64,000 nt of DNA from a virus (lineage: Duplodnaviria; Heunggongvirae; Uroviricota; Caudoviricetes): the IMG/VR virus record IMGVR_UViG_3300048593_000385, one strand, 5' to 3'. The position numbers and the translations under genes were made by a program. A model generated the notes under the pieces. That model had not been told where the DNA came from and searched no databases. It saw only the letters and a list, made by a program, of their open reading frames with translations. This document shows, in pieces, positions 5,587-35,039 of this stretch. Position 1 is the first letter of the stretch. The number at the start of each line of letters is the position of its first letter.

Positions 5587-6015
5587 ATGTTTAAGACGTA
5601 CAAAGGTAAATATCTACCGAAAAATCCAGAAAAATACATGGGTGACCCGAACAACATTATTTATAGAAGCAATTGGGAACAGCGTATGTTCTATCGGCTG
5701 GATGTAGATCCAGGAGTTGTCAAATGGGCATCAGAGGAATTCTCTATACCTTACCTAAGTCCTATTGACAACAAGTTACACAGATACTTTCCTGATGTGT
5801 ATGTTGAAAATGTCCATGGACAGAAGTATGTTATTGAAATAAAGCCAGATGCGCAGACCAGAGCTCCTGCCAAGAAGCCAAGGAATACTAAGAGATATCT
5901 CACAGAGGTAAGCACATACCTTATAAATAGTGCTAAGTGGAATGCAGCCGAAAGATTCTGTGAAGAACGAGGCTGGAAATTCCAGATTGTAACCGAAAAA
6001 GACTTGGGAATTTAA
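5587..6015 (+). CDS. 4: Head completion protein gp4
   Basis: 142 aa. The N-terminus MFKTYKGKYLPKNPEKYMGDPNNIIYRSNWEQR matches the conserved gp4 N-terminus (T4: MSLYKGKFKPKNPQKY..ITYRSSWER). It is divergent from the baseplate operon, as in T4. Confidence 0.7.
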   Translation: MFKTYKGKYLPKNPEKYMGDPNNIIYRSNWEQRMFYRLDVDPGVVKWASEEFSIPYLSPIDNKLHRYFPDVYVENVHGQKYVIEIKPDAQTRAPAKKPRNTKRYLTEVSTYLINSAKWNAAERFCEERGWKFQIVTEKDLGI

Positions 6016-6656
6016 TGGCTGTAACAACAGACAATTACATCTATTCTCGCCTTCTTAAGAGGGCTGCACAAGAGCGCATCATTCCGAACAAGACTAAAGA
6101 AGCCAGAGAGTGGTTTCGTTCTAAAGCTCAAAGGTATAATGGTAATAGAATCAGCCAAGACAAGCTGTTCGAGAAGTCAATCGTAACCAGCAGCATCATG
6201 CCTGGACGCATGTATATGTACGTATACGATGCCAAGACTAAAGACAAGCTACCCTACTGGGATGCTTTCCCTGTTATCTTTCCAGTCAGTACATTTGCTG
6301 GTGGATTTACAGGTCTGAATCTACACTATCTTCCGCCTCTTATGAGAGCAAGGTTGATGGATGCGCTTTATACTATTGCGAACAACGACAGATTCGACGA
6401 CACAACAAAACTCAAGATCTCATACGAAGCATTGAAGAGCGCTGGTTCAATGAAGCTGTTCGCTCCATGTTTCAAAAAATATTTATATTCGCAAGTCAAA
6501 TCTAGGTTCATCTATGTTGAACCGAAAGAATGGGACATTGCTATGTTTCTACCACTGCAGAGATTCCAGGGAGCAACAGCAGAGGAAGTTTGGGCAGACT
6601 CAGCATCAGGCGAACAGCCTTGGCAAAAATGGAAAACTGGAAGAGGGAAACGATAA
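6015..6656 (+). CDS. 2: DNA end protector protein gp2-like
   Basis: 213 aa with a conserved PGRMYMYVYDAKTKDKLPYWDAFP block. It is adjacent to gp4 as in T4 (genes 3-2-4). Confidence 0.5.
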   Translation: MAVTTDNYIYSRLLKRAAQERIIPNKTKEAREWFRSKAQRYNGNRISQDKLFEKSIVTSSIMPGRMYMYVYDAKTKDKLPYWDAFPVIFPVSTFAGGFTGLNLHYLPPLMRARLMDALYTIANNDRFDDTTKLKISYEALKSAGSMKLFAPCFKKYLYSQVKSRFIYVEPKEWDIAMFLPLQRFQGATAEEVWADSASGEQPWQKWKTGRGKR

Positions 6657-10541: not shown

Positions 10542-10573
10542 GGGGAGAGGTTTTTGGCCTCTCCCCTTTTTTG
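10542..10573 (+). terminator. Rho-independent terminator ending the plus-strand structural block
   Basis: GGGGAGAGG-TTTTTGG-CCTCTCCCC hairpin followed by TTTTTTG. Confidence 0.6.
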
Positions 10574-10738
10574 TTATTCGACGATCAACTCAGGTCCTCC
10601 GCCTTCGGTCCATTCCTGAACCGCAGCTTCGGCAATTTCCTTAGACTCGACACGACTCTCATGAACCTTCTGTCCATTTTCAAATCGTTTCACAGTCCAA
10701 GCCATAAAATTCGAGTTAAACTCGTAAGATGCATTTCT
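10565..10738 (-). CDS. Small hypothetical protein (57 aa, below ORF-track threshold)
   Basis: Hand translation gives MARNASYEFNSNFMAWTVKRFENGQKVHESRVESKEIAEAAVQEWTEGGGPELIVE. It directly follows the GapR-like gene on the same strand. Confidence 0.3.
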
Positions 10739-10745
10739 TGCCATA

Positions 10746-10985
10746 TTAGTCGATTCCTAGTGCTGCTTTGTATGTATCAAGGATTGCTTCCATCTCAGCG
10801 CGATCATGAGATTCCATCTTGCGCAGACGAACAATCTGCCTCATGATTTTGCCATCGTAACCACGAGATTTGGCTTCGCTGTAGACATCTTTCTTGTCAT
10901 CGCGAATGCTCTTTTCTTCTTCTTCAAGACGTTCAATTCGCTCAATAAGCAAACGAAGTTCGTCTGCTGAAACATTACCACTCAT
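10746..10985 (-). CDS. gapR: GapR-like nucleoid-associated protein (DUF2312/UPF0335 family)
   Basis: 79 aa. [49 protein letters not shown] matches the hallmark DUF2312/GapR consensus ([34 protein letters not shown]). This family is essentially restricted to Alphaproteobacteria and their phages. Confidence 0.7.
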
Positions 10986-11008
10986 TATAAAATCTCCATA
11001 TTGAAAGT

Positions 11009-11082
11009 TGGATGCTCCTTTAGGACTCGAACCTAAATTGACGGATTCAAAGTCCGATCTCTTACCTTTAGAGGAAGGAGCA
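11009..11082 (-). tRNA. tRNA-Gln (anticodon TTG)
   Basis: Hand-folded cloverleaf: acceptor TGCTCCT/AGGAGCA, D GCTC..GAGC-like, anticodon loop CTTTGAA, T-arm TTAGG-TTCGAGT-CCTAA, CCA encoded. Confidence 0.6.
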
Positions 11083-11091: not shown

Positions 11092-11292
11092 TTACTTGCT
11101 GTCAGGTGCATGAGCTGCACGAGCTTCGCTGTGATCGCGGTCGGCTGGGTTAACAGCTACATCGGCTGGGGCAGCTTCAGTAACAGCTGTATTGGCTTCA
11201 GTAGCAGCTTCAGTAGCAGCTTCTGGTGCTTCCTGAGCACATGCAGAAGTAAGAGCAACAACAGCAGCGGCGATAAAAGTTTTGATATTCAT
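11092..11292 (-). CDS. Small secreted lipoprotein
   Basis: 66 aa with signal peptide and lipobox (VALTSAC), followed by an Ala/Glu/Thr-rich low-complexity region. SD AAGGA upstream. Confidence 0.4.
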   Translation of the reverse strand: MNIKTFIAAAVVALTSACAQEAPEAATEAATEANTAVTEAAPADVAVNPADRDHSEARAAHAPDSK

Positions 11293-11320: not shown

Positions 11321-11412
11321 TGGAGGAAGCGGTGGGATTCGAACCCACGGTACGCTCATCACGTACGGCAGTTTTCAAGACTGCAGGCATCAACCACTCG
11401 CCCACGCTTCCG
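11321..11412 (-). tRNA. tRNA-Ser (anticodon TGA), long variable arm
   Basis: Type II tRNA fold with anticodon loop CTTGAAA, variable arm GTACGTGATGAGCGTACC, T-arm GTGGG-TTCGAAT-CCCAC, CCA encoded. Confidence 0.6.
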
Positions 11413-11467: not shown

Positions 11468-12427
11468 TTAGTCTTCTTCGGCCAAACGCTTGAAGAAGGC
11501 CATATCGTCATCCTCATCAGTAGAGGTTTCGGCAGCTGGAGCAGTCCAAGGCAGGTCTTCATCTTCCTCGACCTTAGTCTCGAAGGCTGGCTTTGCAGTC
11601 TTACCTACTGGAGCTTCCTCGCGACCATAATGACGATTGTCGTCACGATTGATGTGAGTGTTCAGATCAAGAACTTCGTTCAGACGCTTTTCGAGGTCGG
11701 CAAACGACTTGAAGTTAGCAGCATCAAGGAACGGCTGTAGCTTATGTTCCTTCTGCCAGATTGCTTCGAGCGCATCATCATCCTCAAGAAGTGGCTTAGA
11801 ATCACCGAAGGAAGACTTGTCGTAGTTACGATAGCCATCAACCTGACGGATACGAAGATAGAAGTCAGCACCAGACCACATATCGAATGGATTGACTGGC
11901 TTGATTTCTTCAATACCATCATCCATTGGATGCATAAGTTCGTTCAGCTTTTCAAAGATCTTCTTGCCGAAGTCATAGAGGAAAACCTTACCGTTGTTAT
12001 CAGGATTAGCAGGATCCTTGACAACATAGATATTTGCGGCATAGTGAAGGCGACGCTTCTGCTTACGAGCCTGCTTGCGCTGAGGAGAGTCATCATTATC
12101 TGATTCCTTCCAGAGCTTGCTGTTATATTCAGCAACAGGATCCTTTTCGCCGAGGCTGGTCAACGACTTCTCGATATACCACTTTCCACTTGGACCTTGG
12201 AAACCATGATCCCAGTAACGAACAAACGGAACATCCTCGCCCTCGGGAGCAGGAAGAAAGCGAATAATCGCCGAACCATTACCAGCCTTATCGACTGTTG
12301 GCTTCCAGAATTGTTCGTTGTTTTTATCGGAATTTTCGCCGCCACCAGCGGACATCTTGCTAACCTGTTCGGTTAACTTACGGAGAGAATCCTGACTCGA
12401 ATTCTTCAGAGATGCAAAATTTGACAT
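11468..12427 (-). CDS. 32: Single-stranded DNA-binding protein gp32
   Basis: 319 aa. GNGSAIIRFLPAPEGEDVPFVRYWDHGFQGPSGKWYIEKSLTSLGE aligns with T4 gp32 [44 protein letters not shown]. Acidic C-terminal tail as in gp32. Confidence 0.9.
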   Translation of the reverse strand: MSNFASLKNSSQDSLRKLTEQVSKMSAGGGENSDKNNEQFWKPTVDKAGNGSAIIRFLPAPEGEDVPFVRYWDHGFQGPSGKWYIEKSLTSLGEKDPVAEYNSKLWKESDNDDSPQRKQARKQKRRLHYAANIYVVKDPANPDNNGKVFLYDFGKKIFEKLNELMHPMDDGIEEIKPVNPFDMWSGADFYLRIRQVDGYRNYDKSSFGDSKPLLEDDDALEAIWQKEHKLQPFLDAANFKSFADLEKRLNEVLDLNTHINRDDNRHYGREEAPVGKTAKPAFETKVEEDEDLPWTAPAAETSTDEDDDMAFFKRLAEED

Positions 12428-12470: not shown

Positions 12471-13043
12471 TTAATCAACAAAGTTTCTGTTCAGAAGAAA
12501 GATACTCTGCTCTCTTATATAGCGTTCTCTCATCGTTGACGCTTTGCGGATAGCATTAGTCTCTTCGAGAAGGATGGAGTATCCAAACGCATTCATGATA
12601 TGTGCCCAATATTCCGTGGTCTGGCAATTCACGTGGTGATGTCCAGGCTGTCCAGGGAATGCATGAGTCATAAGCACATACTTGCACTTATCCATCGTAG
12701 CAACAAAGTTGCGGATGTATTGCTCTTCAATATGCTCAACAAACTCGACCGTCCATGCTAGGTCGTAGCTTTTCTCCGGAACATATGGAGCTTTCTGGTA
12801 GTCATGGATGACGATGTCATCAACCTTGCGATCAACGACGAAGTCGCCATCCACGCCTAACACCTCGAGACCCTTTTCGCGAGCAAGTTCAACCATGCCC
12901 GCAGGACCACAACCAATATCGACCATGCTCTTGACACCGAGTTTCTCGATGATATAATCAAGAGCACCGTCATCAAGATGGGTCTCGCCTTCATGACCGC
13001 CCAAGTGCATGGGCAGACCATTGTCAGTAAATGTAATTTTCAT
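12471..13043 (-). CDS. Class I SAM-dependent methyltransferase
   Basis: 190 aa with motif I VDIGCGPAGMVELA and downstream acidic motif II (DDIVIHD). Confidence 0.75.
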   Translation of the reverse strand: MKITFTDNGLPMHLGGHEGETHLDDGALDYIIEKLGVKSMVDIGCGPAGMVELAREKGLEVLGVDGDFVVDRKVDDIVIHDYQKAPYVPEKSYDLAWTVEFVEHIEEQYIRNFVATMDKCKYVLMTHAFPGQPGHHHVNCQTTEYWAHIMNAFGYSILLEETNAIRKASTMRERYIREQSIFLLNRNFVD

Positions 13044-13101
13044 TCAATATCCTTTCTCATCATATTTCCACTATACTATAGATAGTTTAAAAAGTCAAGC
13101 A

Positions 13102-13329
13102 TTAAATTGGTAGCATTGCACTTTTAGGAAGATAGTGTAGACTCTCTGCTTCGAGTTGAAGTTTTGCTTTAAGCATATCGTTGGTTTTAATTGCCTTGGC
13201 AAATATTTCCACCTCCACATTATTCTCTTCGCAGTAATAGATGATTGCATCCATATACGAGAGATCGTGTTTCCACACGAGTTCTTCAATTGTTTCGCAA
13301 ATTACTTTCATTCGAGTCATTGAGTTCAT
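13102..13329 (-). CDS. Hypothetical protein (possibly gp33-like late transcription accessory)
   Basis: 75-aa ORF in the position that 33/59 occupy next to gene 32 in T4. No motif confirmation. Confidence 0.3.
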   Translation of the reverse strand: MNSMTRMKVICETIEELVWKHDLSYMDAIIYYCEENNVEVEIFAKAIKTNDMLKAKLQLEAESLHYLPKSAMLPI

Positions 13330-14397: not shown

Positions 14398-14604
14398 TTA
14401 ATTGCCATCAACGAAAGATTTGAGAAGTTGTGCTTCAGCAATAATGTCATCTGTGGCAGGATAAGCAACTTCTGGAAGAGGCGTATTGTGCAACCTAGAA
14501 TTCTCATAGGCAGCATTCATACTCGCATGGAATTTTTCTGAGGCTCTTTGTTGAGCTAGTTTGATCATGTCCATACGGAGCAAGAAAGGTGTATCATTAG
14601 ACAT
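14398..14604 (-). CDS. Hypothetical protein
   Basis: 68-aa ORF immediately downstream of the tmRNA coding piece. Confidence 0.35.
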   Translation of the reverse strand: MSNDTPFLLRMDMIKLAQQRASEKFHASMNAAYENSRLHNTPLPEVAYPATDDIIAEAQLLKSFVDGN

Positions 14605-14619
14605 AGTTATTTTCCTTAT

Positions 14620-14799
14620 GTGTGTAGTGTGTATTTGAGCCCGTTCTGTTTCGAGGTGGAACTCATACCCAATGCTAGCTGTTAGGCAGCTAGAGCAAAG
14701 GCAACGTCATTGTCGTTTGCATTTACAGTTTGTGGCACTTTGCCAGTCAATCAGTCTCGGACGCCCTATTACACGAAAATCGATATCCAGGTCACCCCC
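14620..14799 (-). ncRNA. ssrA: tmRNA (ssrA) coding piece of a permuted two-piece tmRNA; tag reading frame 14682-14720 encodes ANDNDVAFALAA
   Basis: The minus strand reads GGGGGUGACCUGGAUAUCGAUUUUCG (cf. E. coli GGGGCUGAUUCUGGAUUCGACGGG), then ..GCAAACGACAAUGACGUUGCCUUUGCUCUAGCUGCCUAA, a classic A-N-D...ALAA tag plus UAA. The 3' boundary is approximate. Confidence 0.7.
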
Positions 14800-14949
14800 A
14801 TCATAGACAAAGCACCAACTTGAAGTAACATCCAAGGTCATGACTCCTATCCAGTTACTCGTCCCCAAACATTATCTCCCTTGAGGCAAGCCATGCGGTC
14901 GGCCAGTTCCTATATTACGTACGCTGTATAGTCCCTGTTGCTTTATCTA

Positions 14950-15030
14950 TGGTGGAGGTGAGGGGAGTCGAACCCCTGTCTTTCCGCTTTTACTGTTGCC
15001 TGTCAGCAACTGATATTTTATTTAGGTATT
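14950..15030 (-). ncRNA. ssrA: tmRNA acceptor piece (T-arm + 3' acceptor strand + CCA), located upstream of the coding piece (permuted gene order)
   Basis: The minus strand reads ..GACAGGGGUUCGACUCCCCUCACCUCCACCA. The 3' acceptor strand CACCUCC pairs (one G-U) with the GGGGGUG 5' end at 14799. No matching 5' acceptor strand exists adjacent to it, so it is not a stand-alone tRNA. The 5' boundary is approximate and overlaps the 3' end of the 14990-15313 ORF. Confidence 0.6.
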
Positions 15031-15313
15031 TTACCTTCTCTTTGATCCAGTTATCAAACGGAAGGTGCATACCAGTGGAACCATTCCAGTCGGCGAATGC
15101 ATCATCATAAAAGCCAATCTTGGACTTTTTCACCTGCAGTTCGGTCAACTCGTCAGCCCACTGTTGCCACTTTTCGTCAGTGATAACTGGATCATCAAGC
15201 ACATAATACCGATACGAATGTACCAGCATTTGTGTCCGACGCTGTTTGATTTTCTCATCCAGCGTCTGGACTTCATTCACCAGATCCGCCTCGAAAAACG
15301 AATCTAGGCTCAT
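14990..15313 (-). CDS. Small protein resembling the NAD-dependent DNA ligase (LigA) N-terminal Ia domain
   Basis: 107 aa. QRRTQMLVHSYRYYVLDDPVITDEKWQQWADELTELQ resembles the LigA Ia pattern [29 protein letters not shown]. No adenylation domain follows. Confidence 0.4.
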   Translation of the reverse strand: MSLDSFFEADLVNEVQTLDEKIKQRRTQMLVHSYRYYVLDDPVITDEKWQQWADELTELQVKKSKIGFYDDAFADWNGSTGMHLPFDNWIKEKVKYLNKISVADRQQ

Positions 15314-16324: not shown

Positions 16325-16555
16325 TTAAACTTCCTTCTTATCTATATTCCATTTAAAATGATTCCGAGTATATACAATCGCAAGAGCGATGCTCATCGGA
16401 ATCAATCCCCATGCTTCGCTGGCAATAATCCATGTCACCCAGAGGACTTGGTTGGCAAGACCGACCGCCCATGCACGAGGATGATTATTGCCAGCGAGTA
16501 ATGTCATCCAGATAGTAAGGCATGACATCAACCATGGTAGATACGTTACAATCAC
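16325..16555 (-). CDS. Small integral membrane protein
   Basis: 76 aa, hydrophobic, Trp-rich. Confidence 0.45.
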   Translation of the reverse strand: MIVTYLPWLMSCLTIWMTLLAGNNHPRAWAVGLANQVLWVTWIIASEAWGLIPMSIALAIVYTRNHFKWNIDKKEV

Positions 16556-17514
16556 GCAGCTTCAGCCATCTCGAGCGCGAGGTTACCAGCCTCAAGCTTG
16601 CGACGCTGGTTATAACCAAACCAAGCCGAAGTCAGGCGAGTGTCAGCCGAACGACCAAGAAGGTGATCGGTTGAGTAGGTAACAGCATTAAATGCCTGCC
16701 ACCAAGAGCCAGCAGCATATTCGGCTCCAGGCTGAGTCTCGAGAACTTCGTAAGCCAGCTTGGCAGCACGCGACTGCAGTTCCAACGGATCGACTTCCTT
16801 GCGAGTGGTCATCGGGAATACACGATTGAAATATTCAACGATCGACTCGTTGTTATAACGCTTGGTCGAGAGATACTCAGCCATTTCCTTGTAACGAGCC
16901 AGCTTATCCTTAGAGACGCCGAGGACTTCCTTGACCATATCGCCGTCAAACACCTGACGGTGGTTCATCTTGAACATACGCTCAGCTGTGCCGTTCAGCG
17001 ACATAGTCAGAGTGTTGTTGCAGACAACACGGATGGGAGTGAAACGAACGTCAACGGTCTTGCCGTACTGGTGAGGATTCGAGAAGAGAAGGTATCCTTC
17101 AACCTTGTCGTCACCGTTGATCTCGAAGGATTCGTTAACCTTTGCGAGAGCCCAGATATTACGACCACCCTTGAGCGAGCCAGCCGTATGCATTTCCATA
17201 TCGCCAGCAGCGATAAAGTCATTGAAGAATTCGAATGCCTCACGATTCTGGACAGGATTCCAGTCATCGCCAACCATGTCGAAGAACTTATTGTCAGAGG
17301 TGCGAACCAAAGCGGAACGACCAGTGTCAATGCGCTTGCCATTAACTTCGGCAAAAGCAGGGAACTTCTCGACTTCCCAGTCGAGACCAGCAGCCTTCAT
17401 CATCTGCTCGGGCGAGAGATCCGAAGGAACCTTGGTACCAAGACCGTGCCAAGGCAGGTCGCCAGCGTAAGCCATCGAAGCAGCATCGCCGATCATTTCA
17501 AGTTCATGAGCCAT
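16552..17514 (-). CDS. DUF932-like phage/plasmid protein
   Basis: 320 aa starting MAHELEMIGD. Overall resemblance to the phage/plasmid-like DUF932 (TIGR03299-type) family is from memory only. Its 5' UTR contains a perfect hairpin (17536-17559) between the promoter cassette and the ATG. Confidence 0.45.
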   Translation of the reverse strand: MAHELEMIGDAASMAYAGDLPWHGLGTKVPSDLSPEQMMKAAGLDWEVEKFPAFAEVNGKRIDTGRSALVRTSDNKFFDMVGDDWNPVQNREAFEFFNDFIAAGDMEMHTAGSLKGGRNIWALAKVNESFEINGDDKVEGYLLFSNPHQYGKTVDVRFTPIRVVCNNTLTMSLNGTAERMFKMNHRQVFDGDMVKEVLGVSKDKLARYKEMAEYLSTKRYNNESIVEYFNRVFPMTTRKEVDPLELQSRAAKLAYEVLETQPGAEYAAGSWWQAFNAVTYSTDHLLGRSADTRLTSAWFGYNQRRKLEAGNLALEMAEAA

Positions 17515-19363: not shown

Positions 19364-19844
19364 GGCTTTTACCTTTTAGAAAATAGTGTTCTTTTATATA
19401 GGCTATCGTTGTCTTCACGTCAACATGGACAATCGCTTCACCGCCAGCTTCAATGAAATCTTGACAATTGTTTGCTTGATCATCAATCAAAAGATAATTC
19501 TCTCGAGCAAATTGTTTCTTGATGCCTTTAGAGGGAACGATGATGGTCGGCAGGTCAATTCCGTTCTTGCGCAGAGCTTCAAGCTTCTGGTCAACAATTT
19601 CTTCAAATCTGGATGCACCACCAGCTGATGATAGAAAATTGACGTTTACATTTTCACAAAGAAACTCTATCAATTCATAAGCATATGGTAGAAGAGGCAG
19701 ATCCGCGAACCCACCAACGTCGATAAATGCAGGAAATCCTTCGTTCCACCATTTTTCTTTGTCATTTAGCTGGTCGCCGACCACACTATGAAAATCAAAG
19801 ACAACTCCATCAAGATCTAGAAAGACAAAATCAATCTGTTTCAT
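19344..19844 (-). CDS. gmhB: HAD-family phosphatase, likely D,D-heptose 1,7-bisphosphate phosphatase (GmhB-like)
   Basis: 166 aa. N-terminal FVFLDLDGVVFD matches the HAD motif I DxDGT/V. Context is GmhA and a GHMP kinase. Confidence 0.6.
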   Translation of the reverse strand: MKQIDFVFLDLDGVVFDFHSVVGDQLNDKEKWWNEGFPAFIDVGGFADLPLLPYAYELIEFLCENVNVNFLSSAGGASRFEEIVDQKLEALRKNGIDLPTIIVPSKGIKKQFARENYLLIDDQANNCQDFIEAGGEAIVHVDVKTTIAYIKEHYFLKGKSHDQTNI

Positions 19845-20443
19845 CAGTATTTAATATCCCTTGGATCTTTGTTAGAAGCCCAACGTCTCATCAGTTGAGC
19901 CATGAAATGCATAATGGCTTGGCTGGCATCTTCAATGATACCATAATTGTCAGAATCGATATGAATGACAATGTTAGCAAGTTGTTTCGCATCGCCACCA
20001 TCAAATCCAACAATGGCAATAGTTTCCATTCCCTTTTCTTCTGCCTTAGAAATCGCATTAAGAATGTTCGGGGAATTACCGCTGGAACTGATAGCGATCA
20101 GAACATCGGCAGCACCATCTTTGACCTGCCATTCAATTTGTTTTGAAAAGATTTCATTATATCCAATGTCGTTGGCAATGGCAGAGATGAGAGGGAAGTT
20201 GGACGCTAGAGATGTGATGTTCAACCACTGCCCTAGATCTGATTCCATAGCAACACCCTTCATACAGTCACAGGTCAGATGTTCCGCGATAGCTGCCGAA
20301 CCGCCATTACCACAGACATAAATGTTTCCTTTGGTAGCGTAAATCTTTCTGGTTGCTAGGTCAAGTTCTTTCAGATCAACAGTGCTCAATGCACGTGACA
20401 GTTCTGCTGCGTATGAATCTAGAGTATAATATGGTGTTGTCAT
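19844..20443 (-). CDS. gmhA: SIS-domain phosphoheptose isomerase (GmhA)
   Basis: 199 aa. GNGGSAAIAEHLTCDCMKG corresponds to the GmhA GNGGSAADAQHFAAEL motif, and the C-terminal SSSGNSPN matches the SIS motif. Confidence 0.8.
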   Translation of the reverse strand: MTTPYYTLDSYAAELSRALSTVDLKELDLATRKIYATKGNIYVCGNGGSAAIAEHLTCDCMKGVAMESDLGQWLNITSLASNFPLISAIANDIGYNEIFSKQIEWQVKDGAADVLIAISSSGNSPNILNAISKAEEKGMETIAIVGFDGGDAKQLANIVIHIDSDNYGIIEDASQAIMHFMAQLMRRWASNKDPRDIKY

Positions 20444-20445
20444 GT

Positions 20446-21390
20446 TTAATCCTTGTATACTACTCTTGCCCCGTCTAATGCGACAGCCACATCAAGACAG
20501 ACTCGATCAGAAAACTCATGCTTCAATTTGTTTTTGTTGTCAGTCAGAGCCAGCATATATCCACCTCCTCCTGCGCCAAGCAGCTTTGCCCCTGACGCAC
20601 CAGCCTTCAGGCATCGGTCATAAAGAGAATCAATCTCTGGGCTGCTGATTCCACCTTCCAGCTGTTTCTTAAACTTCCATGCTTCGTTGAGCAGTGGACC
20701 GTAGAGATCGTAGGTCGGAGAAAGGTCGGCATGCATATCCGCCATGTGTGACATTTCACGAATGAGGTATGTCTTTTGATCAAAATCAATTTTATTGAGA
20801 ATCTCTGCAGCATGGCGCTGAATGTTTGTCGGAATCAAAACCATGGAGCTATCGATGCCTTTAGGGTCGATTCTCTGGACCAACACCCGATCGCTGGCAA
20901 GATATTCAATATAATTCATGCCACCGAAGGCAGAGGCATACTGATCTTGCTTCCCGATTGCCCAGCCGCACATATCGATCTCAATGTTACATGCAGCTTC
21001 CGCTAACTCATATTCGCTATACCGTTTACCGTTAGGGAAATATTCAGCAAGAGCAGCCACCAGTGCACAGGCGAAAGCAGAAGAACCTGCCAACCCTGTG
21101 CCAACTGTAGGAATATCAGCGAACGTGGTGATCTCGATATTAGATTTGATACCGAAATATTTTAAGGCATTCTTGACAATTTCATTTTGAATGTCATCAA
21201 CAGCAGTCACCAATTCTTGTTTAGAATAGTTGATCTTGATGTGATTCTGAGGAGTTCTTCCTACTGCAACGTAGACATACTTGTCAATCGCAGTAGAGAT
21301 TGTTGATCCGCCCCAACGAAGGTAGTGGGCAGGAATATCCGACCCACCACCAAAGAAGGAAACTCGAAGAGGTGCCTTAGCAAGAATCAT
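20446..21390 (-). CDS. hddA: GHMP-family sugar kinase (D-glycero-D-manno-heptose 7-phosphate kinase, HddA-like)
   Basis: 314 aa. MILAKAPLRVSFFGGGSDIP at the N-terminus and the GHMP motif PTVGTGLAGSSAFACALVAAL. Confidence 0.75.
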   Translation of the reverse strand: MILAKAPLRVSFFGGGSDIPAHYLRWGGSTISTAIDKYVYVAVGRTPQNHIKINYSKQELVTAVDDIQNEIVKNALKYFGIKSNIEITTFADIPTVGTGLAGSSAFACALVAALAEYFPNGKRYSEYELAEAACNIEIDMCGWAIGKQDQYASAFGGMNYIEYLASDRVLVQRIDPKGIDSSMVLIPTNIQRHAAEILNKIDFDQKTYLIREMSHMADMHADLSPTYDLYGPLLNEAWKFKKQLEGGISSPEIDSLYDRCLKAGASGAKLLGAGGGGYMLALTDNKNKLKHEFSDRVCLDVAVALDGARVVYKD

Positions 21391-21392
21391 AA

Positions 21393-22421
21393 TTACGACT
21401 TGTAGATAAACTTGGGAGCAGGAACAGACAGATCCTTACCTTCGTATTCATTCAACAACGATTCGCAGAGCGCATTCCATTGACTACCAATCTTATCCCA
21501 GTTGTAGCGATAGTCGGCATAAGTCTTTTGGAACTGTAGATACGGCATCATATCATTGTCGCGCATCTTTTGGATTGTGTCATCCAGAACAGCATAGAAC
21601 ATATTCGCATGAACATTGACATCCTGATCCCAATGGTACTGAATGGTAATGCTACCCGAGGTATCGGTAAGACCAGCATAGTTCGGGTGAACACAGACAG
21701 CACCAGATGACATTGCCTCGATCAACGACTGGCTGTTGCATTCTGGCCAGATCGAAGGATAGGCAAAGATATGTGCCTTTGCGACAGTCTCACGAACTGT
21801 TTCGTTCGGAGCAAAGCCATGGTAGTTAATCTTAGGATGATTACGACACTTGTCAAACAGATCCTCGAACTGTTGATCAGCATTTTCCCAACCGTAGATC
21901 TTATAGCTTGAGAAAACGTCAAGCACGATATTGTCATACTTTTCGCATAGCTTCTCGAACACAGGAACAAGAATGTTCAGACCACGTTGAGGAGTGCTGG
22001 TGTAAACCAAACGAATTTCTTCTTTCGGATCACTCTTGTTGATTGGGCCAAAAGGAGTTGTCGCAGTATCAATGACACAGCTTTGCTGAGTGTGCGGAAT
22101 TCCCAAATGATTTTGGTACATGTTCATCTGCCACTGGCCACAGTAGACAATCTTGTGGAAACGGTTGCGACTGTTCTCGGCGGTCAAATGCTTGGTCTCG
22201 GGATCCCAAGGCAAATCGTGCAACCAATAGATACGGATGCGATCATCATGCAGCTCGCGCACACGCGAGGGGATAATCTGAAACTTTTCGTGGTACTCTG
22301 GCTTCAATCGAGCCAGAACACCTTCCATCATTCGCTCTGTCCCACCTTGAGACTTTGCGTTCAATTCATTACGTTCCCAAATACTACTCATTGTAATTTC
22401 CCATCGTAAGTTCGGAGCCAT
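21393..22421 (-). CDS. Putative glycosyltransferase (GT-B, family 1/4-like)
   Basis: 342 aa. The C-terminal half (IRLVYTSTPQRGLNILVPVF ... AYPSIWPECNSQSLIEAMSSGAVCV) resembles the GT1/GT4 nucleotide-sugar-binding domain. Confidence 0.45.
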   Translation of the reverse strand: MAPNLRWEITMSSIWERNELNAKSQGGTERMMEGVLARLKPEYHEKFQIIPSRVRELHDDRIRIYWLHDLPWDPETKHLTAENSRNRFHKIVYCGQWQMNMYQNHLGIPHTQQSCVIDTATTPFGPINKSDPKEEIRLVYTSTPQRGLNILVPVFEKLCEKYDNIVLDVFSSYKIYGWENADQQFEDLFDKCRNHPKINYHGFAPNETVRETVAKAHIFAYPSIWPECNSQSLIEAMSSGAVCVHPNYAGLTDTSGSITIQYHWDQDVNVHANMFYAVLDDTIQKMRDNDMMPYLQFQKTYADYRYNWDKIGSQWNALCESLLNEYEGKDLSVPAPKFIYKS

Positions 22422-23383
22422 GGTTGCCCAACAAGCATCTGGCTACTAATAGATTCAAAGTGTGAAGTGATGATGTCGGCGAGATCATACTTTGGACCTT
22501 CTGGCCACATCAACGACAATTTATATGGATCGCCAATCAGGAATCCAGGATCGCCTGGACGAACTTCCGCAATATCATATTCCAGAGGATATAGTTTTGC
22601 GAATGTAAGAGCAAGTTGCAGATTCGACACAGGTTTGCCACTGCAAACATTGAAGGTGTCGTATTCACGTTCAGGCTTATTATATAGTTGTTCTGCTGCA
22701 GCAACCAGAGCATCACACACATCAGCTACGTGGATATAATCTCTTACGCATGTTCCATCAAAGGTGTCGTATTCATTACCGTTGATGTAGAATGTGTCAT
22801 CAGTCAAAGATGCCTTTGACATTTTGGTAAGGATATGTGGTTGATTAGCAGCTTGGCCGATACCTTTGTATGCACCAGCAACATTGAAGAAGCGCATTGA
22901 GTATGCCTTGAGGCCATACGCTTCGCATGATTCTTTCAACATCATCTCACCAACCCACTTGGTTGAGCCATAGGGATTGATTGGACTTCCAGCCACAACT
23001 TCAGGCAAAGGATCAGGGCTGCGCATATCACCATATGTTGCAGCAGAGGATGCAAAGATAAATGCACCCTTCCAGTTTTCTCTAGCTAAATTGGACAGCA
23101 TATCGCACATACTACTAACGTTATTATCATAGTAGTATAGTGGTTTGGATACCGATGGCCCAAGCAAACTGTTAGCGCCAAGATGGAAGATTGCATCAAC
23201 GCCATCCAGATCGCCGTCAGAGGCAATTGTTGCATAATTATCAATAAAAAACTCATCAGTGTTCCAGTCGTAATTGTCACACTTTACGTCTACGCCAATG
23301 ACATAATAACCAGCTTCTTTCAGCTTTAGCTGGAGAACACGCCCGATGAACCCTGATGCTCCAGTAACAATCGCCTTCTTCAT
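22388..23383 (-). CDS. NAD-dependent nucleotide-sugar epimerase/dehydratase (SDR extended family)
   Basis: 331 aa. N-terminal Rossmann motif MKKAIVTGASGFIGRVL and the YxxxK catalytic pair further downstream. Confidence 0.8.
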   Translation of the reverse strand: MKKAIVTGASGFIGRVLQLKLKEAGYYVIGVDVKCDNYDWNTDEFFIDNYATIASDGDLDGVDAIFHLGANSLLGPSVSKPLYYYDNNVSSMCDMLSNLARENWKGAFIFASSAATYGDMRSPDPLPEVVAGSPINPYGSTKWVGEMMLKESCEAYGLKAYSMRFFNVAGAYKGIGQAANQPHILTKMSKASLTDDTFYINGNEYDTFDGTCVRDYIHVADVCDALVAAAEQLYNKPEREYDTFNVCSGKPVSNLQLALTFAKLYPLEYDIAEVRPGDPGFLIGDPYKLSLMWPEGPKYDLADIITSHFESISSQMLVGQPWLRTYDGKLQ

Positions 23384-28329: not shown

Positions 28330-30411
28330 TTATTTTGAGGTTGCGCGATAAACACCATCCCAATTTTTAGGAGCAGCTTTGGCTTCGTTCATACGATCGA
28401 GCATGGCTTCGTAGTAGCCTTTGAGTTCTCCATTCCACAATGGACCCATTTCATATGCCATGGCCATGGCTCTGCCCCAATCACCTGAGCGATATGCATC
28501 CAGGAATCTGTTGTGAGCAATTTCAGCCTTTTCGTTCTTTTCTTCAAGAACTGTATAGATTCGAGCTGGTTCAGTTTTGCCTTTAACAGCAATCAAATCA
28601 AGTTCAATTACTTGGTATACATCCCTAACCAGTTCGGCAGTTTGTGGTCCGACGATGAGTTTGACCCCATAAGGTTTGGTTTGACCTTCGAGGCGAGCAG
28701 CCAAATTAACCCCATCACCCAAGCAAGTGTAATCAAAACGCTGGTCGCTGCCCATATTACCAACAACCACAGTGGCAGTGTTAATACCAAGACCCATACC
28801 GAAAGCTGGAATGCCTTCCCCTTTAATTTCGCCATTAAATATCTCCAGGTCTTTTAGCATCTGGAAAGCAGTGCGCACCGAATCCAAAGCATGTTGAGGG
28901 TTATCTACTGGTGCATTCCAGAAAGCCATCTGTGCGTCACCAATATACTTATCAAGTGTTCCTTTGTTTTCCAGAATAGCTCTTGTCATCACAGTCATAT
29001 ATCTATTCATTATGGAAGTAAGACCTTCAACGTCTTCGCCATAGTGTTCGGAAATAGTAGTGAAGCCACGAACATCAGTAAACATAATCGACAACTGTTG
29101 TTTTGTTCCACCTAGCTTGAGTAACTCTGGCTGTTTCTGCAGCTGAGCAACCAAGTCTGGCGACAGATACGTGCCAAACTGTTTCTTAATCTGTTGCTTT
29201 TGTAGGAATTCGCTGATAAACTTGGCAGTATATAGATGTATATATACAAACAGTGCAGCAGCAATATTGAACGACACATCAAAAAGGATGTGTTCTTTGG
29301 TAAATAAATAGAATGGTAGATACAGATATCCGCCCATGATCACGGCGATATATATAATTGAATAGCGGAAACGAGAAACAACAATCAATGACAGGCAAAC
29401 AAAAACAAATGCACCAAGATCAGCAAGTTGCCCCCACAGAGGAATCGCAACCGAATCACCATTTATCAGAGTCTGAAGAATTGACGCTTGCAACTGATGG
29501 GGATACTGCGCACCTTGTGGAGTCGCTACAGGATTCGCGATACCAGCGGCAGTTACGCCAAGTATCACAATTTTACCTGTCAGATCAGGCAAAGCCTTGT
29601 CACCAATTTCGAATGACGCAAATTTATAGTTCGGATTGACGAACACTCGACCATATTCATCAGTTTTAATTGTTTCGAAGGAAGGAATTCGTAATGCCTC
29701 AACTCCCGTCTGATTTATCTTCGCTTGATATGACGGATCTCCAGCAGCTACACGCAGCATCTCTAGAGCAAATGCGGGATAGTATTCGCCAGATGATTGT
29801 GCTAGAAGAGGAACTCGCCGTACGACCCCGTCTGCCTCAGGTAATGTTGATGTTATCCCAACACCGACAGCGGCTTCTTGCAGAGGTGCAATATTACTTA
29901 GAACGCATGGATATTGAGGAAGAAATTCAGTTGGTTCTCCATCGCCGATTACGGCAACGCCTGTCTTCCGAATTGTCGCACTTGCCTGAGGTGAACCTCG
30001 GCCAGTGGTCGATCCAGCAATACAGTCAGCGGAAACAGTCTGACTGAGTACAACTGGATATTCGCTTAGAGCATTCGCAAGAACTCTATCAGTCCCCAAG
30101 CGGTCAGGCTCAGGCATAAGTATAGTGCTGCCAACAGCGCCAGCCCCTCTGCTGTATATATCGCCAATGATTTTAGCATGGACTTCCCTCGGGAAAGGCC
30201 ACTGACCATATTTTTCAATTGATTTCTCCCCTAAATTAGCGACTACAATCTGCTCAGATTGCTTTGGTGTATCCAGCATGATGTAGTCATAAAATTTAAG
30301 GCGAGACGCTTCAACCAAAAATGGATCTTGTAGCTTTACTACAAGCAGTAGCGCAAATGTGATCAGTACCAACCACGGAGACAATAAAATTTTAATCGCT
30401 TTGTTTGACAT
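28330..30411 (-). CDS. Membrane-bound class III adenylate cyclase with periplasmic CHASE2 sensor domain
   Basis: 693 aa. N-terminal TM, then about 300 aa extracytoplasmic CHASE2-like domain, 3-4 TM helices, then the cyclase homology domain (FTDVRGFTTISE ... DKYIGDAQMAFWNAP ... GINTATVVVGNMG ... DYTCLGDGVNLAARLE). The Lys before YIGD indicates ATP specificity. Confidence 0.85.
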   Translation of the reverse strand: MSNKAIKILLSPWLVLITFALLLVVKLQDPFLVEASRLKFYDYIMLDTPKQSEQIVVANLGEKSIEKYGQWPFPREVHAKIIGDIYSRGAGAVGSTILMPEPDRLGTDRVLANALSEYPVVLSQTVSADCIAGSTTGRGSPQASATIRKTGVAVIGDGEPTEFLPQYPCVLSNIAPLQEAAVGVGITSTLPEADGVVRRVPLLAQSSGEYYPAFALEMLRVAAGDPSYQAKINQTGVEALRIPSFETIKTDEYGRVFVNPNYKFASFEIGDKALPDLTGKIVILGVTAAGIANPVATPQGAQYPHQLQASILQTLINGDSVAIPLWGQLADLGAFVFVCLSLIVVSRFRYSIIYIAVIMGGYLYLPFYLFTKEHILFDVSFNIAAALFVYIHLYTAKFISEFLQKQQIKKQFGTYLSPDLVAQLQKQPELLKLGGTKQQLSIMFTDVRGFTTISEHYGEDVEGLTSIMNRYMTVMTRAILENKGTLDKYIGDAQMAFWNAPVDNPQHALDSVRTAFQMLKDLEIFNGEIKGEGIPAFGMGLGINTATVVVGNMGSDQRFDYTCLGDGVNLAARLEGQTKPYGVKLIVGPQTAELVRDVYQVIELDLIAVKGKTEPARIYTVLEEKNEKAEIAHNRFLDAYRSGDWGRAMAMAYEMGPLWNGELKGYYEAMLDRMNEAKAAPKNWDGVYRATSK

Positions 30412-31483
30412 TTATAATAGTCCCGCCCGATGGTTGATTTACTTCGATTAGAAATGACTTTCCATTACTATCTATGTATAATGTTTTGTTTGAATCTTTT
30501 TTGACAACAATGTCAACAGTACTACTTAGTGTCCGAACGAGCCGTAGATAATCTCCAGAAAGAATTGTAGTTATCTGTGTAGTATTATCTAGCCCAAATG
30601 TTGTTCCGCACAACTTGGTGTCTTCTCTGGTGACACAATTATCTGCTCCTAAAGCATTGTCTAAAAAGTCTTCGCCGAGGTAATTTGCATCGATTGCATT
30701 AATATCAAGATCCGAACTTGCAAGTGCATTTTCTTGTAGATCATCTTTGGCAAGGAAATCTACATCAAGTTCAGAGAGATCCAGCATGTTAGTCCTGATA
30801 TCTCTCAATTCCTCCTCAGTCTTGAATTCTTCGGCAGGTGCTACGATGAGCATATTATCAATTTGATCAAGTGACATATTCAGAATGACTGGACGAGTAG
30901 GTCTGCTGTCTGTGGTTGATACTATGGTCGCTTGAAACGCTCTGGTCAAAATGACTGAGCCAGCAGCATTTGAAACAGTAATCTCACCAACTGATCCATC
31001 TTCCTCTGGCAGAAGGATGACCAAACTCTTTCCAAAATCATCGACTGTGGTCGCAAAGTCTGTTCCACGAACAGCAATCGTGGCTGTTGGTGTTCTCAGA
31101 TTAATATTGCCTTTGTTGATTTTTCCGGATTTACCTGTCGCAAATCTGGCAGTCCCCGAAGCAAATTTGAGAACCATTTTTGATGTTGATGGATTGCCGC
31201 TGTAAACAAAATCATCAACAACAAGCCTAGAATTTTCAGTGACTTTGACGGTAGAGTCGTCTAAAAAAGTTATCTCGACTCTACCGTTTCCAGTCTGCAC
31301 TTTGTCCATCTTGGCAATAGGTAACTGAAGTCGTGAAGGAACCTTTGCAGTTTTCTTCACAACTTCGCTCGAACCTCGAGTTTGAGTTACCTTACCAATA
31401 TTAGCATGGACCACCTGCGTTGCACTGATTAATAGTAATAGTGCTGCCGTTGCTCGTGCTATCAACTTTAAGTGTGTCAACAT
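30392..31483 (-). CDS. Secreted FecR-domain protein
   Basis: 363 aa. Signal peptide (LLLLISATQVVHA). FecR-type beta-rich pattern including ATIAVRGTDFATTV (the a.v.GT.F.v hallmark). Confidence 0.6.
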   Translation of the reverse strand: MLTHLKLIARATAALLLLISATQVVHANIGKVTQTRGSSEVVKKTAKVPSRLQLPIAKMDKVQTGNGRVEITFLDDSTVKVTENSRLVVDDFVYSGNPSTSKMVLKFASGTARFATGKSGKINKGNINLRTPTATIAVRGTDFATTVDDFGKSLVILLPEEDGSVGEITVSNAAGSVILTRAFQATIVSTTDSRPTRPVILNMSLDQIDNMLIVAPAEEFKTEEELRDIRTNMLDLSELDVDFLAKDDLQENALASSDLDINAIDANYLGEDFLDNALGADNCVTREDTKLCGTTFGLDNTTQITTILSGDYLRLVRTLSSTVDIVVKKDSNKTLYIDSNGKSFLIEVNQPSGGTIINVKQSD

Positions 31484-32096
31484 TTGTTGTGCTCTGCTGA
31501 TTTATTGTTAATGTATTTGTACTGCCTGTAAGAACCAATTCAATATTCTTCCCAGCATTGCCATTCTGCAGCGTAGTAATAGTATTACCATCACCAACAA
31601 TAGTCTTAGTGTTCACCACATCATCCGCATTTATGGTGGATGTCATTGTGTTGGTGTCACCAGTGATTGCGATAGTTTGTGTAGCATTAGTGGCTGATGC
31701 CGCTGTACCCTGATTAAAGGTCAAGTCGTTTGAATCCCCAGTCACTGTAAGTGTTTTGGTGGATCCAGCCACACTACCGCTATCGCCTTCGTCATACGTC
31801 AACTTATTGTTGTCGCCAGTAACAGTAACATCCTTATCGACATTATCTGCTTGAACAATAGAGCCTTGGATAATGTTTCCATTACCTTCTTGTTTGACTG
31901 TAACTGTTTGGTTATTACCTTCAATTACTACTCGATTCTGCTCAGAACCGATGCTGTTGGTTTGACCTTTTTGGGTAATAGTAATAGTGCTACTATCACC
32001 GACCTGATCAATAAAAATCGAGTTGGTTGTTGTTTGTGCAAAACTCACCGAACTCGTCATCAGAAACATAATGAAAAGAGCTATTTTATTTTTCAT
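31401..32096 (-). CDS. Secreted curlin-repeat protein (CsgA/CsgB-like amyloid subunit)
   Basis: 231 aa. Signal peptide. Tandem degenerate repeats of the form ITQKGQTNS / VKQEGNGNIIQG / TVTGDNNKLTYDEGDSG / TVTGDSNDLTFNQG / AITGDTNTMTS / LTGSTNTLTINQ, resembling curlin repeats (S-x5-Q-x-G-x-G-N). Confidence 0.6.
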   Translation of the reverse strand: MKNKIALFIMFLMTSSVSFAQTTTNSIFIDQVGDSSTITITQKGQTNSIGSEQNRVVIEGNNQTVTVKQEGNGNIIQGSIVQADNVDKDVTVTGDNNKLTYDEGDSGSVAGSTKTLTVTGDSNDLTFNQGTAASATNATQTIAITGDTNTMTSTINADDVVNTKTIVGDGNTITTLQNGNAGKNIELVLTGSTNTLTINQQSTTNVDTLKVDSTSNGSTITINQCNAGGPC

Positions 32097-32101
32097 TACC
32101 C

Positions 32102-32920
32102 TTATTCCTTTAATGATACCGATCGATCGATATCGATCTTCGGTGCGAACTTAAAATATCCTTTCTCGATACCCTGTTTTATCAATTGTAAAACTGCTTC
32201 TTCAATCGCCATTTTGACTGCCATGGTGTTGGCTTCATTTTCGGTCATGCCTGCTTCGGCTTCCACCAATTTTGTGCCAACATCGACAAATTTAAACAGT
32301 GACAGATCTTTACCGACAGATAATACTGTTTTAGAAACTTGCACATTAAGAACAACTTCTCCAGTATTAGTGTTGACTCCTCGCAGAGAAACAACAACCT
32401 GATCTTTTCGGTAGACGACAGAGCCTCCTACACCAAGATATCTTGCTCCTGCTCCGCCTGTCTGTATGTTACTATCATACCCGATAATACCACCTTGGAT
32501 GATGAGCCCAGCGAACAGCATTGGTTCGAGTTTATTTGCACCCTCACCAAGATATTCTTCACGAGTCTGTCTAACAATCTGACGTTCTTTGGCAAGATCC
32601 TCGACACGATTTCGTTCTACAACTCTAAACCATGTTCCTCCACCTGCATCCCTCAAAGCAGAAATTAATAGTGGTGTTCCGCCTTGTGTGACTGCAGTTG
32701 ATATGCTGGCAATACCATCTTTATCTCTGCGTTGACCTGTCATATCAGGAAAGTCATAAACCGCTACTACTGCTTGTCTGTCAGGCGCAGGAAGGTTGTA
32801 TAATTCTTTGACTTGTGTCTTTACAATCTTTGCATCTTCTTTTAATTGAAGACCAACAGGTCCAGATGCCACGCAACCACACAGAAGAAAAGGTAATAAT
32901 AGAATCTTCCACATTACCAC
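32102..32920 (-). CDS. csgG: Curli production assembly/transport outer-membrane lipoprotein CsgG
   Basis: 272 aa. Lipobox LLCGC. Extensive collinearity with E. coli CsgG, for example AVVAVYDFPDMTGQ (VSVYNIQDETGQ) and GLIIQGGIIGYDSNIQTGGAGARYLGVGG (NIMVEGSIIGYESNVKSGGVGARYFGIGA). Confidence 0.9.
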   Translation of the reverse strand: MVMWKILLLPFLLCGCVASGPVGLQLKEDAKIVKTQVKELYNLPAPDRQAVVAVYDFPDMTGQRRDKDGIASISTAVTQGGTPLLISALRDAGGGTWFRVVERNRVEDLAKERQIVRQTREEYLGEGANKLEPMLFAGLIIQGGIIGYDSNIQTGGAGARYLGVGGSVVYRKDQVVVSLRGVNTNTGEVVLNVQVSKTVLSVGKDLSLFKFVDVGTKLVEAEAGMTENEANTMAVKMAIEEAVLQLIKQGIEKGYFKFAPKIDIDRSVSLKE

Positions 32921-34168: not shown

Positions 34169-34245
34169 TTGGTACGGGATGACAGGCTCGAACTGCCGAC
34201 ATTCTGCGTGTAAAGCAGACGCTCTACCAACTGAGCTAATCCCGC
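34169..34245 (-). tRNA. tRNA-Val (TAC)
   Basis: Cloverleaf with anticodon loop TTTACAC, T-arm GGCAG-TTCGAGC-CTGTC, CCA encoded. Confidence 0.65.
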
Positions 34246-34246
34246 A

Positions 34247-34684
34247 TTAACTTCTTACCATATGGTCAGCTGCATGCGTTGCAGCAAATGCCTCAGGTTT
34301 AACTTTTGCATCAAGACCAGTAGTTCCTTTGACATATCCCAATGCTTCTTTTATCGCAATACTAGATTTGTGCTTAGGATCAGGATTGATGTCAAGGTGA
34401 ATTTCTAGTTTGCGATCGCCAACAACATCAATAATTTCTGTTGCTGCTTGGATCGCAAATCCAGCTTCGGTGATCATTCTTTGACGAAGGTTTCCGTAGT
34501 CGCGCATGTCAACCGAATTGTGCCAAAGCTGACAACCATGCTTCGAATCCTTGTGCAGGATGATCACGGTCGAATACTTTGCCCACCACTCCTTGTTCTT
34601 TTTATATCGAATGCTATCGGCACCAACATAAATTGTAGAAGTGTCGCTTGATTCTATAATTGCCTTCTTTGCTTCATCAAACAT
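34247..34684 (-). CDS. Hypothetical protein, possibly RNase H-like fold nuclease
   Basis: 145-aa ORF embedded in the tRNA array. Acidic residues are spaced as in RuvC/YqgF-like nucleases (IYVGADS ... ITEAGF ... EIHLDINPD), which is weak evidence. Confidence 0.3.
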   Translation of the reverse strand: MFDEAKKAIIESSDTSTIYVGADSIRYKKNKEWWAKYSTVIILHKDSKHGCQLWHNSVDMRDYGNLRQRMITEAGFAIQAATEIIDVVGDRKLEIHLDINPDPKHKSSIAIKEALGYVKGTTGLDAKVKPEAFAATHAADHMVRS

Positions 34685-34698
34685 AAATCACCTAAAAA

Positions 34699-34773
34699 CT
34701 GGCGAAGGTGCCGAGACTCGAACTCGGAACGACGGTTTTGGAGACCGTAATGATAGCCATTTCACCACACCGA
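34699..34773 (-). tRNA. tRNA-Trp (CCA), acceptor stem with two mismatches
   Basis: Anticodon arm ACGGT-CTCCAAA-ACCGT, T-arm CCGAG-TTCGAGT-CTCGG, CCA encoded. The acceptor GTCGGTG/CACCTTC has two non-pairing positions. Confidence 0.5.
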
Positions 34774-34779
34774 CAAAAA

Positions 34780-34857
<78 letters not shown>

Positions 34858-34862
34858 AATTA

Positions 34863-34944: not shown

Positions 34945-34949
34945 AAAAG

Positions 34950-35024: not shown

Positions 35025-35039
35025 ATTAAACTTATTTAG

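Follow-up and report, generated by a model that had tools for sequence, protein, structure and literature searches.

A GapR-type DNA-binding protein encoded downstream of gp32 in an uncultured T4-like phage suggests Sphingomonadales as its host order

Introduction

The nucleoid protein GapR is represented in the PDB by the Caulobacter crescentus protein (CCNA_03428 / CC_3319; entries 6CG8, 6OZX-Z, 6JYK and 6K2J), whose interface, salt-bridge and DNA-contact residues have been listed (PMC7498317). Phage copies are also on record. The T4-like Caulobacter phage Cr30 carries a homolog named GapR-Cr30 (PMC7349988), the gene has been called an "auxiliary gene" of the Erythrobacter siphophages R34L1/R34L2, R16L/R22L and XM05 (PMC12185513), and T4 DsbA has been stated to be a GapR homolog (PMC7824862, PMC7349988). 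GapR is annotated in about 150 isolated phage genomes (152 isolated-phage records); these are phages of alphaproteobacteria, as a preliminary description of the present locus had said of phage-borne copies, with few exceptions (Microcystis and Synechococcus phages and an EBPR siphovirus).

Here we describe a GapR gene in a 64,000-nucleotide stretch of viral DNA, hereafter the window, from the IMG/VR record IMGVR_UViG_3300048593_000385. Because phage GapRs and the link to DsbA are already published (PMC12185513, PMC7824862, PMC7349988), our findings do not overturn current knowledge; what is new is an order-level host call, a conserved genomic slot with two allele classes, and an altered stripe of residues on helix 1.

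Results

The phage and its gapR gene

The source phage is uncultured and T4-like, with a genome of ~160 kb and 43% GC. The window has T4-like gene content (gp32, a gp33-like co-activator, baseplate proteins, gp5 and gp2) and carries 23 tRNAs and a permuted tmRNA. A megablast of the region against isolated phages returned tRNA matches only and no isolated relative; by gp32, the nearest isolates are Caulobacter phage Cr30 (50.8%), cyanomyoviruses, Stenotrophomonas phage DLP_6 and Sinorhizobium phage phiM12. The gene of interest is an ATG-to-stop open reading frame on the minus strand:

10746..10985, minus strand: gapR, 79-aa GapR/DUF2312 (UPF0335) predicted DNA-binding protein (ORF, PF10073, PDB matches, AF2 model, Foldseek)
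10994..10997, minus strand: Shine-Dalgarno GGAG, 8 nt 5' of the gapR ATG (read from the sequence)

The ORF list places the 79-codon frame at exactly these positions. Its product matches Pfam PF10073 (GapR_DNA-bd, formerly DUF2312/UPF0335) with 114.3 bits and E=1.9e-33 over profile positions 2-72 of 72, the score cut-off being 22.6 bits. In a phmmer search of the PDB it matched Bosea GapR (6CFY) at E=7.3e-23 and Caulobacter GapR (6CG8/6JYK/6OZX) at about 1e-15 to 1e-16. Since the same protein occurs unchanged on 8 independent metagenome contigs, the longest of which (JGI 3300044716 Ga0453708_0000020) has 160,657 bp, the ORF is not an assembly artefact; ORFs overlapping it in other frames (10806..10970, plus strand; 10841..10981, minus strand) are unsupported. 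The family assignment of the preliminary description, together with the motifs that it had quoted from this translation, is therefore confirmed: The ORF is genuine and its product is a true GapR/DUF2312 protein. Named cellular and plasmid homologs are all alphaproteobacterial, and phage homologs mostly so.

Neighbourhood and expression

The minus-strand gene order around gapR is gp33, methyltransferase, gp32, tRNA-Ser, orf66, tRNA-Gln, gapR, orf56:

13102..13329, minus strand: gp33-like late-transcription co-activator (phrog_254 E=7.7e-15; PF16805 Trans_coact)
13070..13098, minus strand: sigma-70-like promoter candidate, TTGACT-17-TATAGT (consensus scan, 10/12 matches; pattern match only)
12471..13043, minus strand: methyltransferase, first gene of the inferred transcription unit (phrog_3382; weak Methyltransf_23)
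11468..12427, minus strand: gp32 single-stranded-DNA-binding protein, anchor of the conserved slot (PF08804 E=2.9e-41)
11321..11411, minus strand: tRNA-Ser(tga) (ARAGORN; Rfam)
11092..11292, minus strand: orf66, small variable ORF between gp32 and gapR (59-81% conserved among sub-lineages)
11009..11082, minus strand: tRNA-Gln(ttg) (ARAGORN; Rfam tRNA 57.1 bits)
10574..10744, minus strand: orf56, small gene (ORF) beginning 1 nt past the gapR stop
10542..10566, plus strand: GC-rich hairpin with 11-bp stem (terminator scan; T-run after the stem on the plus strand only)

The two tRNAs listed here flank orf66, which has no Pfam or PHROG match, and the 3' end of tRNA-Gln(ttg) sits 23 nt 5' of the gapR start codon. 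In every sub-lineage of the phage clade orf56 lies directly 3' of gapR; it is 77-96% identical in L090, L133 and L135 and 48% identical in L144, adjoining gapR in these, and its C-terminal half scarcely varies. Pfam and PHROG give no match for it, and homologs are absent outside the phage clade. We considered gapR and orf56 as a general two-gene module and rejected the idea, orf56 being absent beside gapR in other phages or cells.

The hairpin lies at a convergent junction, where the gapR-orf56 unit meets the opposing orf81/structural genes. The sigma-70-like candidate is the sole promoter-like site upstream, on the minus strand, of the unit running from the methyltransferase through gp32 to gapR. 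The T4 late-promoter motif TATAAATA is enriched in the window (11 found, 2.06 expected), and a scan of the window for TATAAATA found none in front of gp32 or gapR. Since gapR shares its strand and unit with gp32, with a sigma-70-like promoter upstream and no late promoter, it is probably expressed in the early or middle phase of infection, alongside gp32 and other replication genes.

Fold, interface and DNA-contact residues

The AF2 model of the window GapR (40 homologs; pLDDT 91.4) is a single domain with helices at residues 3-40, 45-56 and 59-76, that is, one long N-terminal helix followed by two short C-terminal ones, which is the GapR architecture. Its top PDB match in Foldseek is Caulobacter GapR 6OZY_B (TM 0.73, probability 1.00). 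Caulobacter residue numbers equal window numbers plus 10. The inter-subunit salt bridges R16-E37, E18-R55 and E21-K56 are all three retained, and 12 of the 14 hydrophobic dimer-interface positions are identical or conservatively replaced; the other two are A16, which is S here, and Caulobacter I41, which is radically replaced by K (window K31). For the DNA contacts we compared the channel-lining basic residues K34, K42, K49, K56, K59, K60, R63 and K66 of Caulobacter GapR. Five are identical (window K32, K39, K46, R53 and K56, corresponding to Caulobacter K42, K49, K56, R63 and K66), K59 is conservatively replaced by R (window R49), and K60 is replaced by Q, as it is in all sphingomonad GapRs. 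The window protein thus retains most interface and DNA-contact residues of the family along with its fold; that it also assembles into tetrameric rings, favours AT-rich or overtwisted DNA and stimulates gyrase and topo IV would follow by analogy with cellular GapR.

The remaining contact, Caulobacter K34, touches DNA in both solved complexes (PMC7498317) and corresponds to window position 24. Helix 1 of the window sub-lineage carries K24E, A28R and I31K (proteins P0002, P0003 and P0004, from several independent samples): K24E is a charge reversal, and I31K falls on the dimer-interface position of Caulobacter I41. All cellular relatives compared have K24 and I31 (80/80) and none has R28 (0/80); in sister phage lineages K24 and I31 are likewise retained, and residue 28 is T, N or S. 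More broadly, residues 22-31 are variable among phage GapRs and invariant in cells. With their i, i+4, i+7 spacing, positions 24, 28 and 31 share a face of the helix. Because the net charge of the stripe is the same after the changes from K to E, A to R and I to K, the triple replacement looks more like a re-spacing of the basic stripe than an inactivation. Since K24E and I31K fall on invariant positions, DNA binding or assembly in the window sub-lineage may nevertheless differ from that of canonical GapR.

Age, selection and the gp32-adjacent slot

The GC content (0.43) and GC3 (0.38) of gapR equal the phage background (phage GC3 0.30-0.57), the cellular copies having GC3 values of 0.43-0.95. 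This match rules out a recent horizontal transfer: The gene is not a recent pickup. Between phage sub-lineages its dN/dS is 0.06-0.3, so gapR is maintained by selection. Within phage GapRs, dN is about 0.24 for residues 22-31 and 0.02 for residues 42-79. Positive selection on residues 22-41 was considered but is not demonstrable, as their dN is ~10x that of residues 42-79 yet omega is 0.17-0.25; one pair gives omega 1.1 there, from very small counts.

We surveyed the slot on IMG/VR contigs anchored on gp32. Where gp32 is at least 68% identical, every contig has a GapR ORF 0.2-1.4 kb downstream of gp32, and a 153-kb contig of a second sub-clade has it in the same position; in this survey none of about 70 more distant relatives has a gp32-downstream GapR. 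This second sub-clade, of the L144 type, which we call the L clade, contains more than 80 GapR allele clusters, many of them on 75-260-kb contigs that also carry the CHASE2-cyclase gene described below. Judging from composition, selection and distribution, GapR has long been part of the gene content of a large group of uncultured phages.

Cellular relatives

Of 5.8 billion proteins searched, those that match the window GapR and bear an organism name are all from Sphingomonadales: Sphingobium boeckii (82%), Sphingomonas sp. (83%), S. colocasiae (77%) and Sphingorhabdus soli (77%). The best 80 cellular loci, taken at one genome per species, are 70-85% identical and belong to Sphingomonadales wherever the order is named, with the single exception of a Cypionkella MAG contig. 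The closest cellular homologs (77-87%) are chromosomal Sphingomonadales GapRs: Flanking genes of cellular gapR are common to 64-68 of the 80 loci, complete chromosomes included, and the closest cellular type (P0012, 87%) is located among housekeeping genes. Plasmid-borne GapRs of Rhodobacterales, Rhizobiales, Acetobacterales and Azospirillum are only 40-58% identical (Rhodobacterales 50-55%), those of roseobacter phages 44-50%, and the Cr30 copy 45%. Among isolated phages, identity is highest for Erythrobacter phages, which have a sphingomonad host (65-73%).

A tree of the phage proteins with bacterial GapRs, to which the preliminary description had pointed as a check, nests the phage alleles inside sphingomonad GapR diversity in 300/300 bootstraps against the available outgroups, a small sample that leaves out SAR11 and chromosomal Rhodobacterales GapRs. 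The preliminary description had read the gene as an alphaproteobacterial host signature and had suggested SAR11 or the roseobacter clade. The alphaproteobacterial part holds, the best homologs all being from that class. The narrower guess does not: Sphingomonadales sequences are closest (70-87%), and Rhodobacterales (50-55%) and roseobacter-phage (44-50%) sequences are far more distant, in a comparison that contained no SAR11 GapR.

Two allele classes in one slot

Although the clade of the window (W) and the L clade both carry GapR in this slot, identity between the proteins of the two is only 61-69%. W alleles share the motifs AADELRLL, SRGYD and KME[AS]HD with a cellular subtype A found in Sphingomonadales MAGs, including a Chakrabartia sp.; L alleles share TDDRLRLL with a subtype B of Erythrobacteraceae/Novosphingobium type. 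A four-point test favours the grouping (W,A | L,B), with distance sums of 0.548 vs 0.732 and 0.799 and 489/500 bootstraps, although A and B were picked as nearest neighbours of W and L, a possible bias. A full neighbour-joining bootstrap without hand-picked groups recovers W as monophyletic in 87% and L in 98% of replicates, an exclusive W+L clade in only 0.3%, W with subtype A to the exclusion of L in 77%, and phage plus cellular sphingomonad sequences apart from the outgroups in 100%. Because W and L group with different cellular sphingomonad subtypes, there has been at least one replacement or re-acquisition in place, and these comparisons imply that both slot alleles came from sphingomonad-type donors and were probably swapped at least once.

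Only the W/L split requires a replacement. We rejected strict host-tracking of every allele, since no cellular GapR is more than ~76% identical to those of the L144 clade, and none at all is close to that of L145; phage GapRs therefore also drift on their own. L145 (IMGVR_UViG_3300016472_001137), which belongs to the same phage clade and has a low GC content (36%), carries in the same slot, at 6154..6414, a strongly diverged GapR (49% identity) with a C-terminal extension and with no close relative in a metagenome scan. Separately, L139 (JGI 3300071642, a 42.7-kb contig) encodes at 6001..6237 a GapR 85% identical to that of the window; it is a temperate-phage-like element with Mu Gam, an HTH repressor pair, ParB_N and an Acb2/Tad1-like gene, and a phage-to-phage donor route for GapR alleles is thus possible.

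GapR similarity marks the donor lineage, and the present host need not be the same. Because the gene is of Sphingomonadales-type origin and has been exchanged for another sphingomonad-type allele, however, we infer Sphingomonadales, rather than SAR11 or the roseobacter clade, as the host order indicated by these sequences.

Other features of the window

Several further loci on the minus strand are of interest in their own right:

14591..15045, minus strand: permuted (two-piece) tmRNA, tag peptide ANDNDVAFALAA (Rfam tmRNA_permuted 91.6 bits)
16552..17514, minus strand: DUF932 protein (highest GC3 in the window, 0.57)
19844..23383, minus strand: sugar-nucleotide/heptose-type block of SIS isomerase, GHMP kinase, family-1 glycosyltransferase and NAD-dependent epimerase
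28330..32920, minus strand: cluster of CHASE2 sensor-adenylate/guanylate cyclase fusion (693 aa), FecR-domain protein, 231-aa ORF and CsgG-like lipoprotein
34170..41353, minus strand: dispersed array of 21 tRNA genes among small ORFs
35549..36565, minus strand: radical SAM/SPASM protein
37603..38400, minus strand: Band 7/SPFH protein

The tmRNA is permuted, as first described, and scores 54.2 bits on the Rfam alpha_tmRNA model, just over the 50-bit threshold; a similarity search with it gave one weak match in isolated phages (Sinorhizobium jumbo phage Phosso) and none in plasmids. The DUF932 gene may be a more recent acquisition, since its GC3 is the maximum of the window, and modification of either the host surface or phage DNA is a possible role of the sugar-nucleotide block. 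The cluster at 28330..32920 looks bacterial within a T4-like phage. Its CHASE2-cyclase belongs to the core genes of a very large group of uncultured phages, with at least 120 clusters at 75-92% identity, and the sole name on its relatives is 'uncultured Caudovirales phage'; as a core gene of that group it is uninformative as an independent host signal.

Discussion

Based on these comparisons, we consider it probable that the window encodes a functional GapR clamp of Sphingomonadales-type origin, long resident in a phage whose host order is Sphingomonadales. The mechanism that we propose as the best-supported one is borrowed from established GapR biology. As cellular GapR does, the three-helix phage protein would form a tetrameric ring that encircles duplex DNA. 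It would be produced with gp32 in the early or middle phase of infection. On phage DNA that is AT-rich or overtwisted, it would load in front of advancing replication forks and RNA polymerase and aid type II topoisomerases in removing positive supercoils, which would let fast phage replication and late transcription proceed. The 64-kb window, out of a genome of ~160 kb, holds no type II topoisomerase gene.

The charge reversal of a universal DNA-contact lysine by K24E in the window sub-lineage could also be read differently: The phage protein might co-assemble with the essential host GapR into mixed tetramers, either redirecting it onto phage DNA or inactivating it and so shutting down replication of the host chromosome. 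The preliminary description had proposed that the phage protein may mimic or compete with host GapR during replication. In published work, replacing six lysines of the channel by acidic residues eliminated DNA binding and left the tetramer intact (PMC6853979), which would fit such a poison subunit. However, L090, L133, L135 and the L144 clade all keep K24 and I31, so a loss of DNA binding is not general, and the unchanged net charge of the 24/28/31 stripe suggests remodelling over inactivation. Oligomerisation helices and salt bridges almost identical to those of host-type GapR are consistent with mixing, and alleles matching two cellular subtypes in one slot would be expected if the phage copy must fit that of the host; yet L-clade alleles are at most 76% identical to any cellular GapR, which argues against strict matching. 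We regard this account as unlikely.

An equally improbable reading, in our judgement, is that the protein is a DsbA-like double-stranded-DNA binder of the gp33-gp32 module that boosts some late promoters and is not a topology or replication factor. The window GapR matches the T4 DsbA family phrog_639 weakly (E=0.0039), T4 DsbA matches PF10073 weakly (E=0.026), the pairwise BLASTP alignment of the two gives E=0.002 with about 29% identity over 48 residues, and T4 DsbA against the GapR of the window clade gives E=0.0015. These weak reciprocal similarities agree with the published statements of homology (PMC7824862, PMC7349988), and by analogy the window GapR may work like T4 DsbA. PF11126 (Phage_DsbA), however, is not reported for the window GapR at E<=0.01, so the protein is not a member of the DsbA family, and its sequence is that of a typical cellular-type GapR. 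Distant relatives in IMG/VR (L201, L206, L208, L194, L175 and L171/L173) have a DsbA-like small ORF directly upstream of gp33, as in T4; the GapR clade is without it, and tblastn finds no separate DsbA within the 64-kb window, so that the distribution of the two in the gp33-gp32 module is complementary. But intermediate relatives have neither gene within 5 kb, and gapR does not occupy the T4 dsbA slot, an idea that we rejected on gene order: T4 has dsbA-33-59-32 and the window has 33-MTase-32-...-GapR, the place upstream of gp33 being taken in the GapR clade by a SleB-like hydrolase gene. Isolated alphaproteobacterial phages (RL38J1, RHph_I1_18, phiM9, XM05 and Cr30) carry GapR elsewhere in the genome.

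That the host is some other alphaproteobacterium (SAR11, roseobacter or another), the sphingomonad-like GapR being an old import uninformative on the host, would be in line with the fully ameliorated composition of gapR, with a phage GC content (43%) below that of every sphingomonad locus seen (50-70%) and with the Caulobacter, cyanobacterial, Stenotrophomonas and Sinorhizobium hosts of the nearest isolates by gp32, but two same-slot allele classes from sphingomonad subtypes speak for repeated contact with Sphingomonadales, roseobacter and Rhodobacterales GapRs reach only 44-55% identity, and the highest identities among isolated phages are those of Erythrobacter phages (65-73%), which makes this alternative very unlikely.

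The functional clamp of Sphingomonadales-type origin thus remains our preferred reading. It gives an order-level host prediction for an abundant uncultured T4-like phage group without an isolate, and corrects the earlier guess of SAR11 or roseobacter. It also shows a nucleoid protein essential to the host as a long-term, selected component of a phage replication module. The natural variants at a known DNA-contact lysine and a dimer-interface residue are ready-made mutants for studying DNA binding by the GapR ring, and could probe whether phage and host GapR subunits mix. A further idea, which we put forward as speculation with little expectation that it holds in full, is that the GapR of the slot is re-sampled from the host lineage so as to fit the host GapR or topoisomerases, that the window variant is a changed clamp, and that DsbA is a diverged descendant. 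If so, phage GapR would be a host-range-linked factor, acting through mixed tetramers or through its fit to host topoisomerases; the K24E/A28R/I31K clamp would be specificity-switched, dominant-negative or adapted to modified phage DNA; and T4 DsbA would descend, much diverged, from the same module component.

Comparison with known systems

Caulobacter GapR belongs to the same Pfam family as the window protein, has the same helix architecture, and shares with it the salt bridges and most interface and DNA-contact residues, at about 46% identity over the aligned core. The window protein differs in having no counterpart of the ~10-residue N-terminal extension of Caulobacter GapR, in the replacement of the K34 and I41 equivalents by E and K in its sub-lineage, and in being encoded by a lytic-type phage. 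The chromosomal GapRs of subtype A (JAYVVW01, JANOXQ01 and Chakrabartia sp. JBEBKH01; P0012) are much closer, being of equal length, 85-87% identical, and marked by the same diagnostic motif KME[AS]HDRAEMEA. Their genes have GC3 values of 0.54-0.64 and a conserved chromosomal neighbourhood, whereas the window gene has a GC3 of 0.38 and lies beside gp32.

Among phages, Cr30 is the nearest isolate by gp32 (50.8%) and is likewise a T4-like myovirus of an alphaproteobacterium with a GapR homolog, but GapR-Cr30 is only 45% identical to the window GapR, over residues 25-77, and its gene is ~73 kb from Cr30 gp32, unlike the slot in the window; it is probably an independent acquisition. The Erythrobacter phages, siphoviruses or other types with ~61% GC, carry GapRs with high similarity to the GapR of their sphingomonad host genus, and these are 65-73% identical to the window GapR in another genomic context. 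T4 DsbA is a remote homolog of the window GapR and a small double-stranded-DNA binder of the gp33-gp32 module of T4-like phages. It belongs to a different Pfam family and, unlike the window GapR, has no close cellular counterpart; its gene lies upstream of gp33, and that of the window GapR downstream of gp32.
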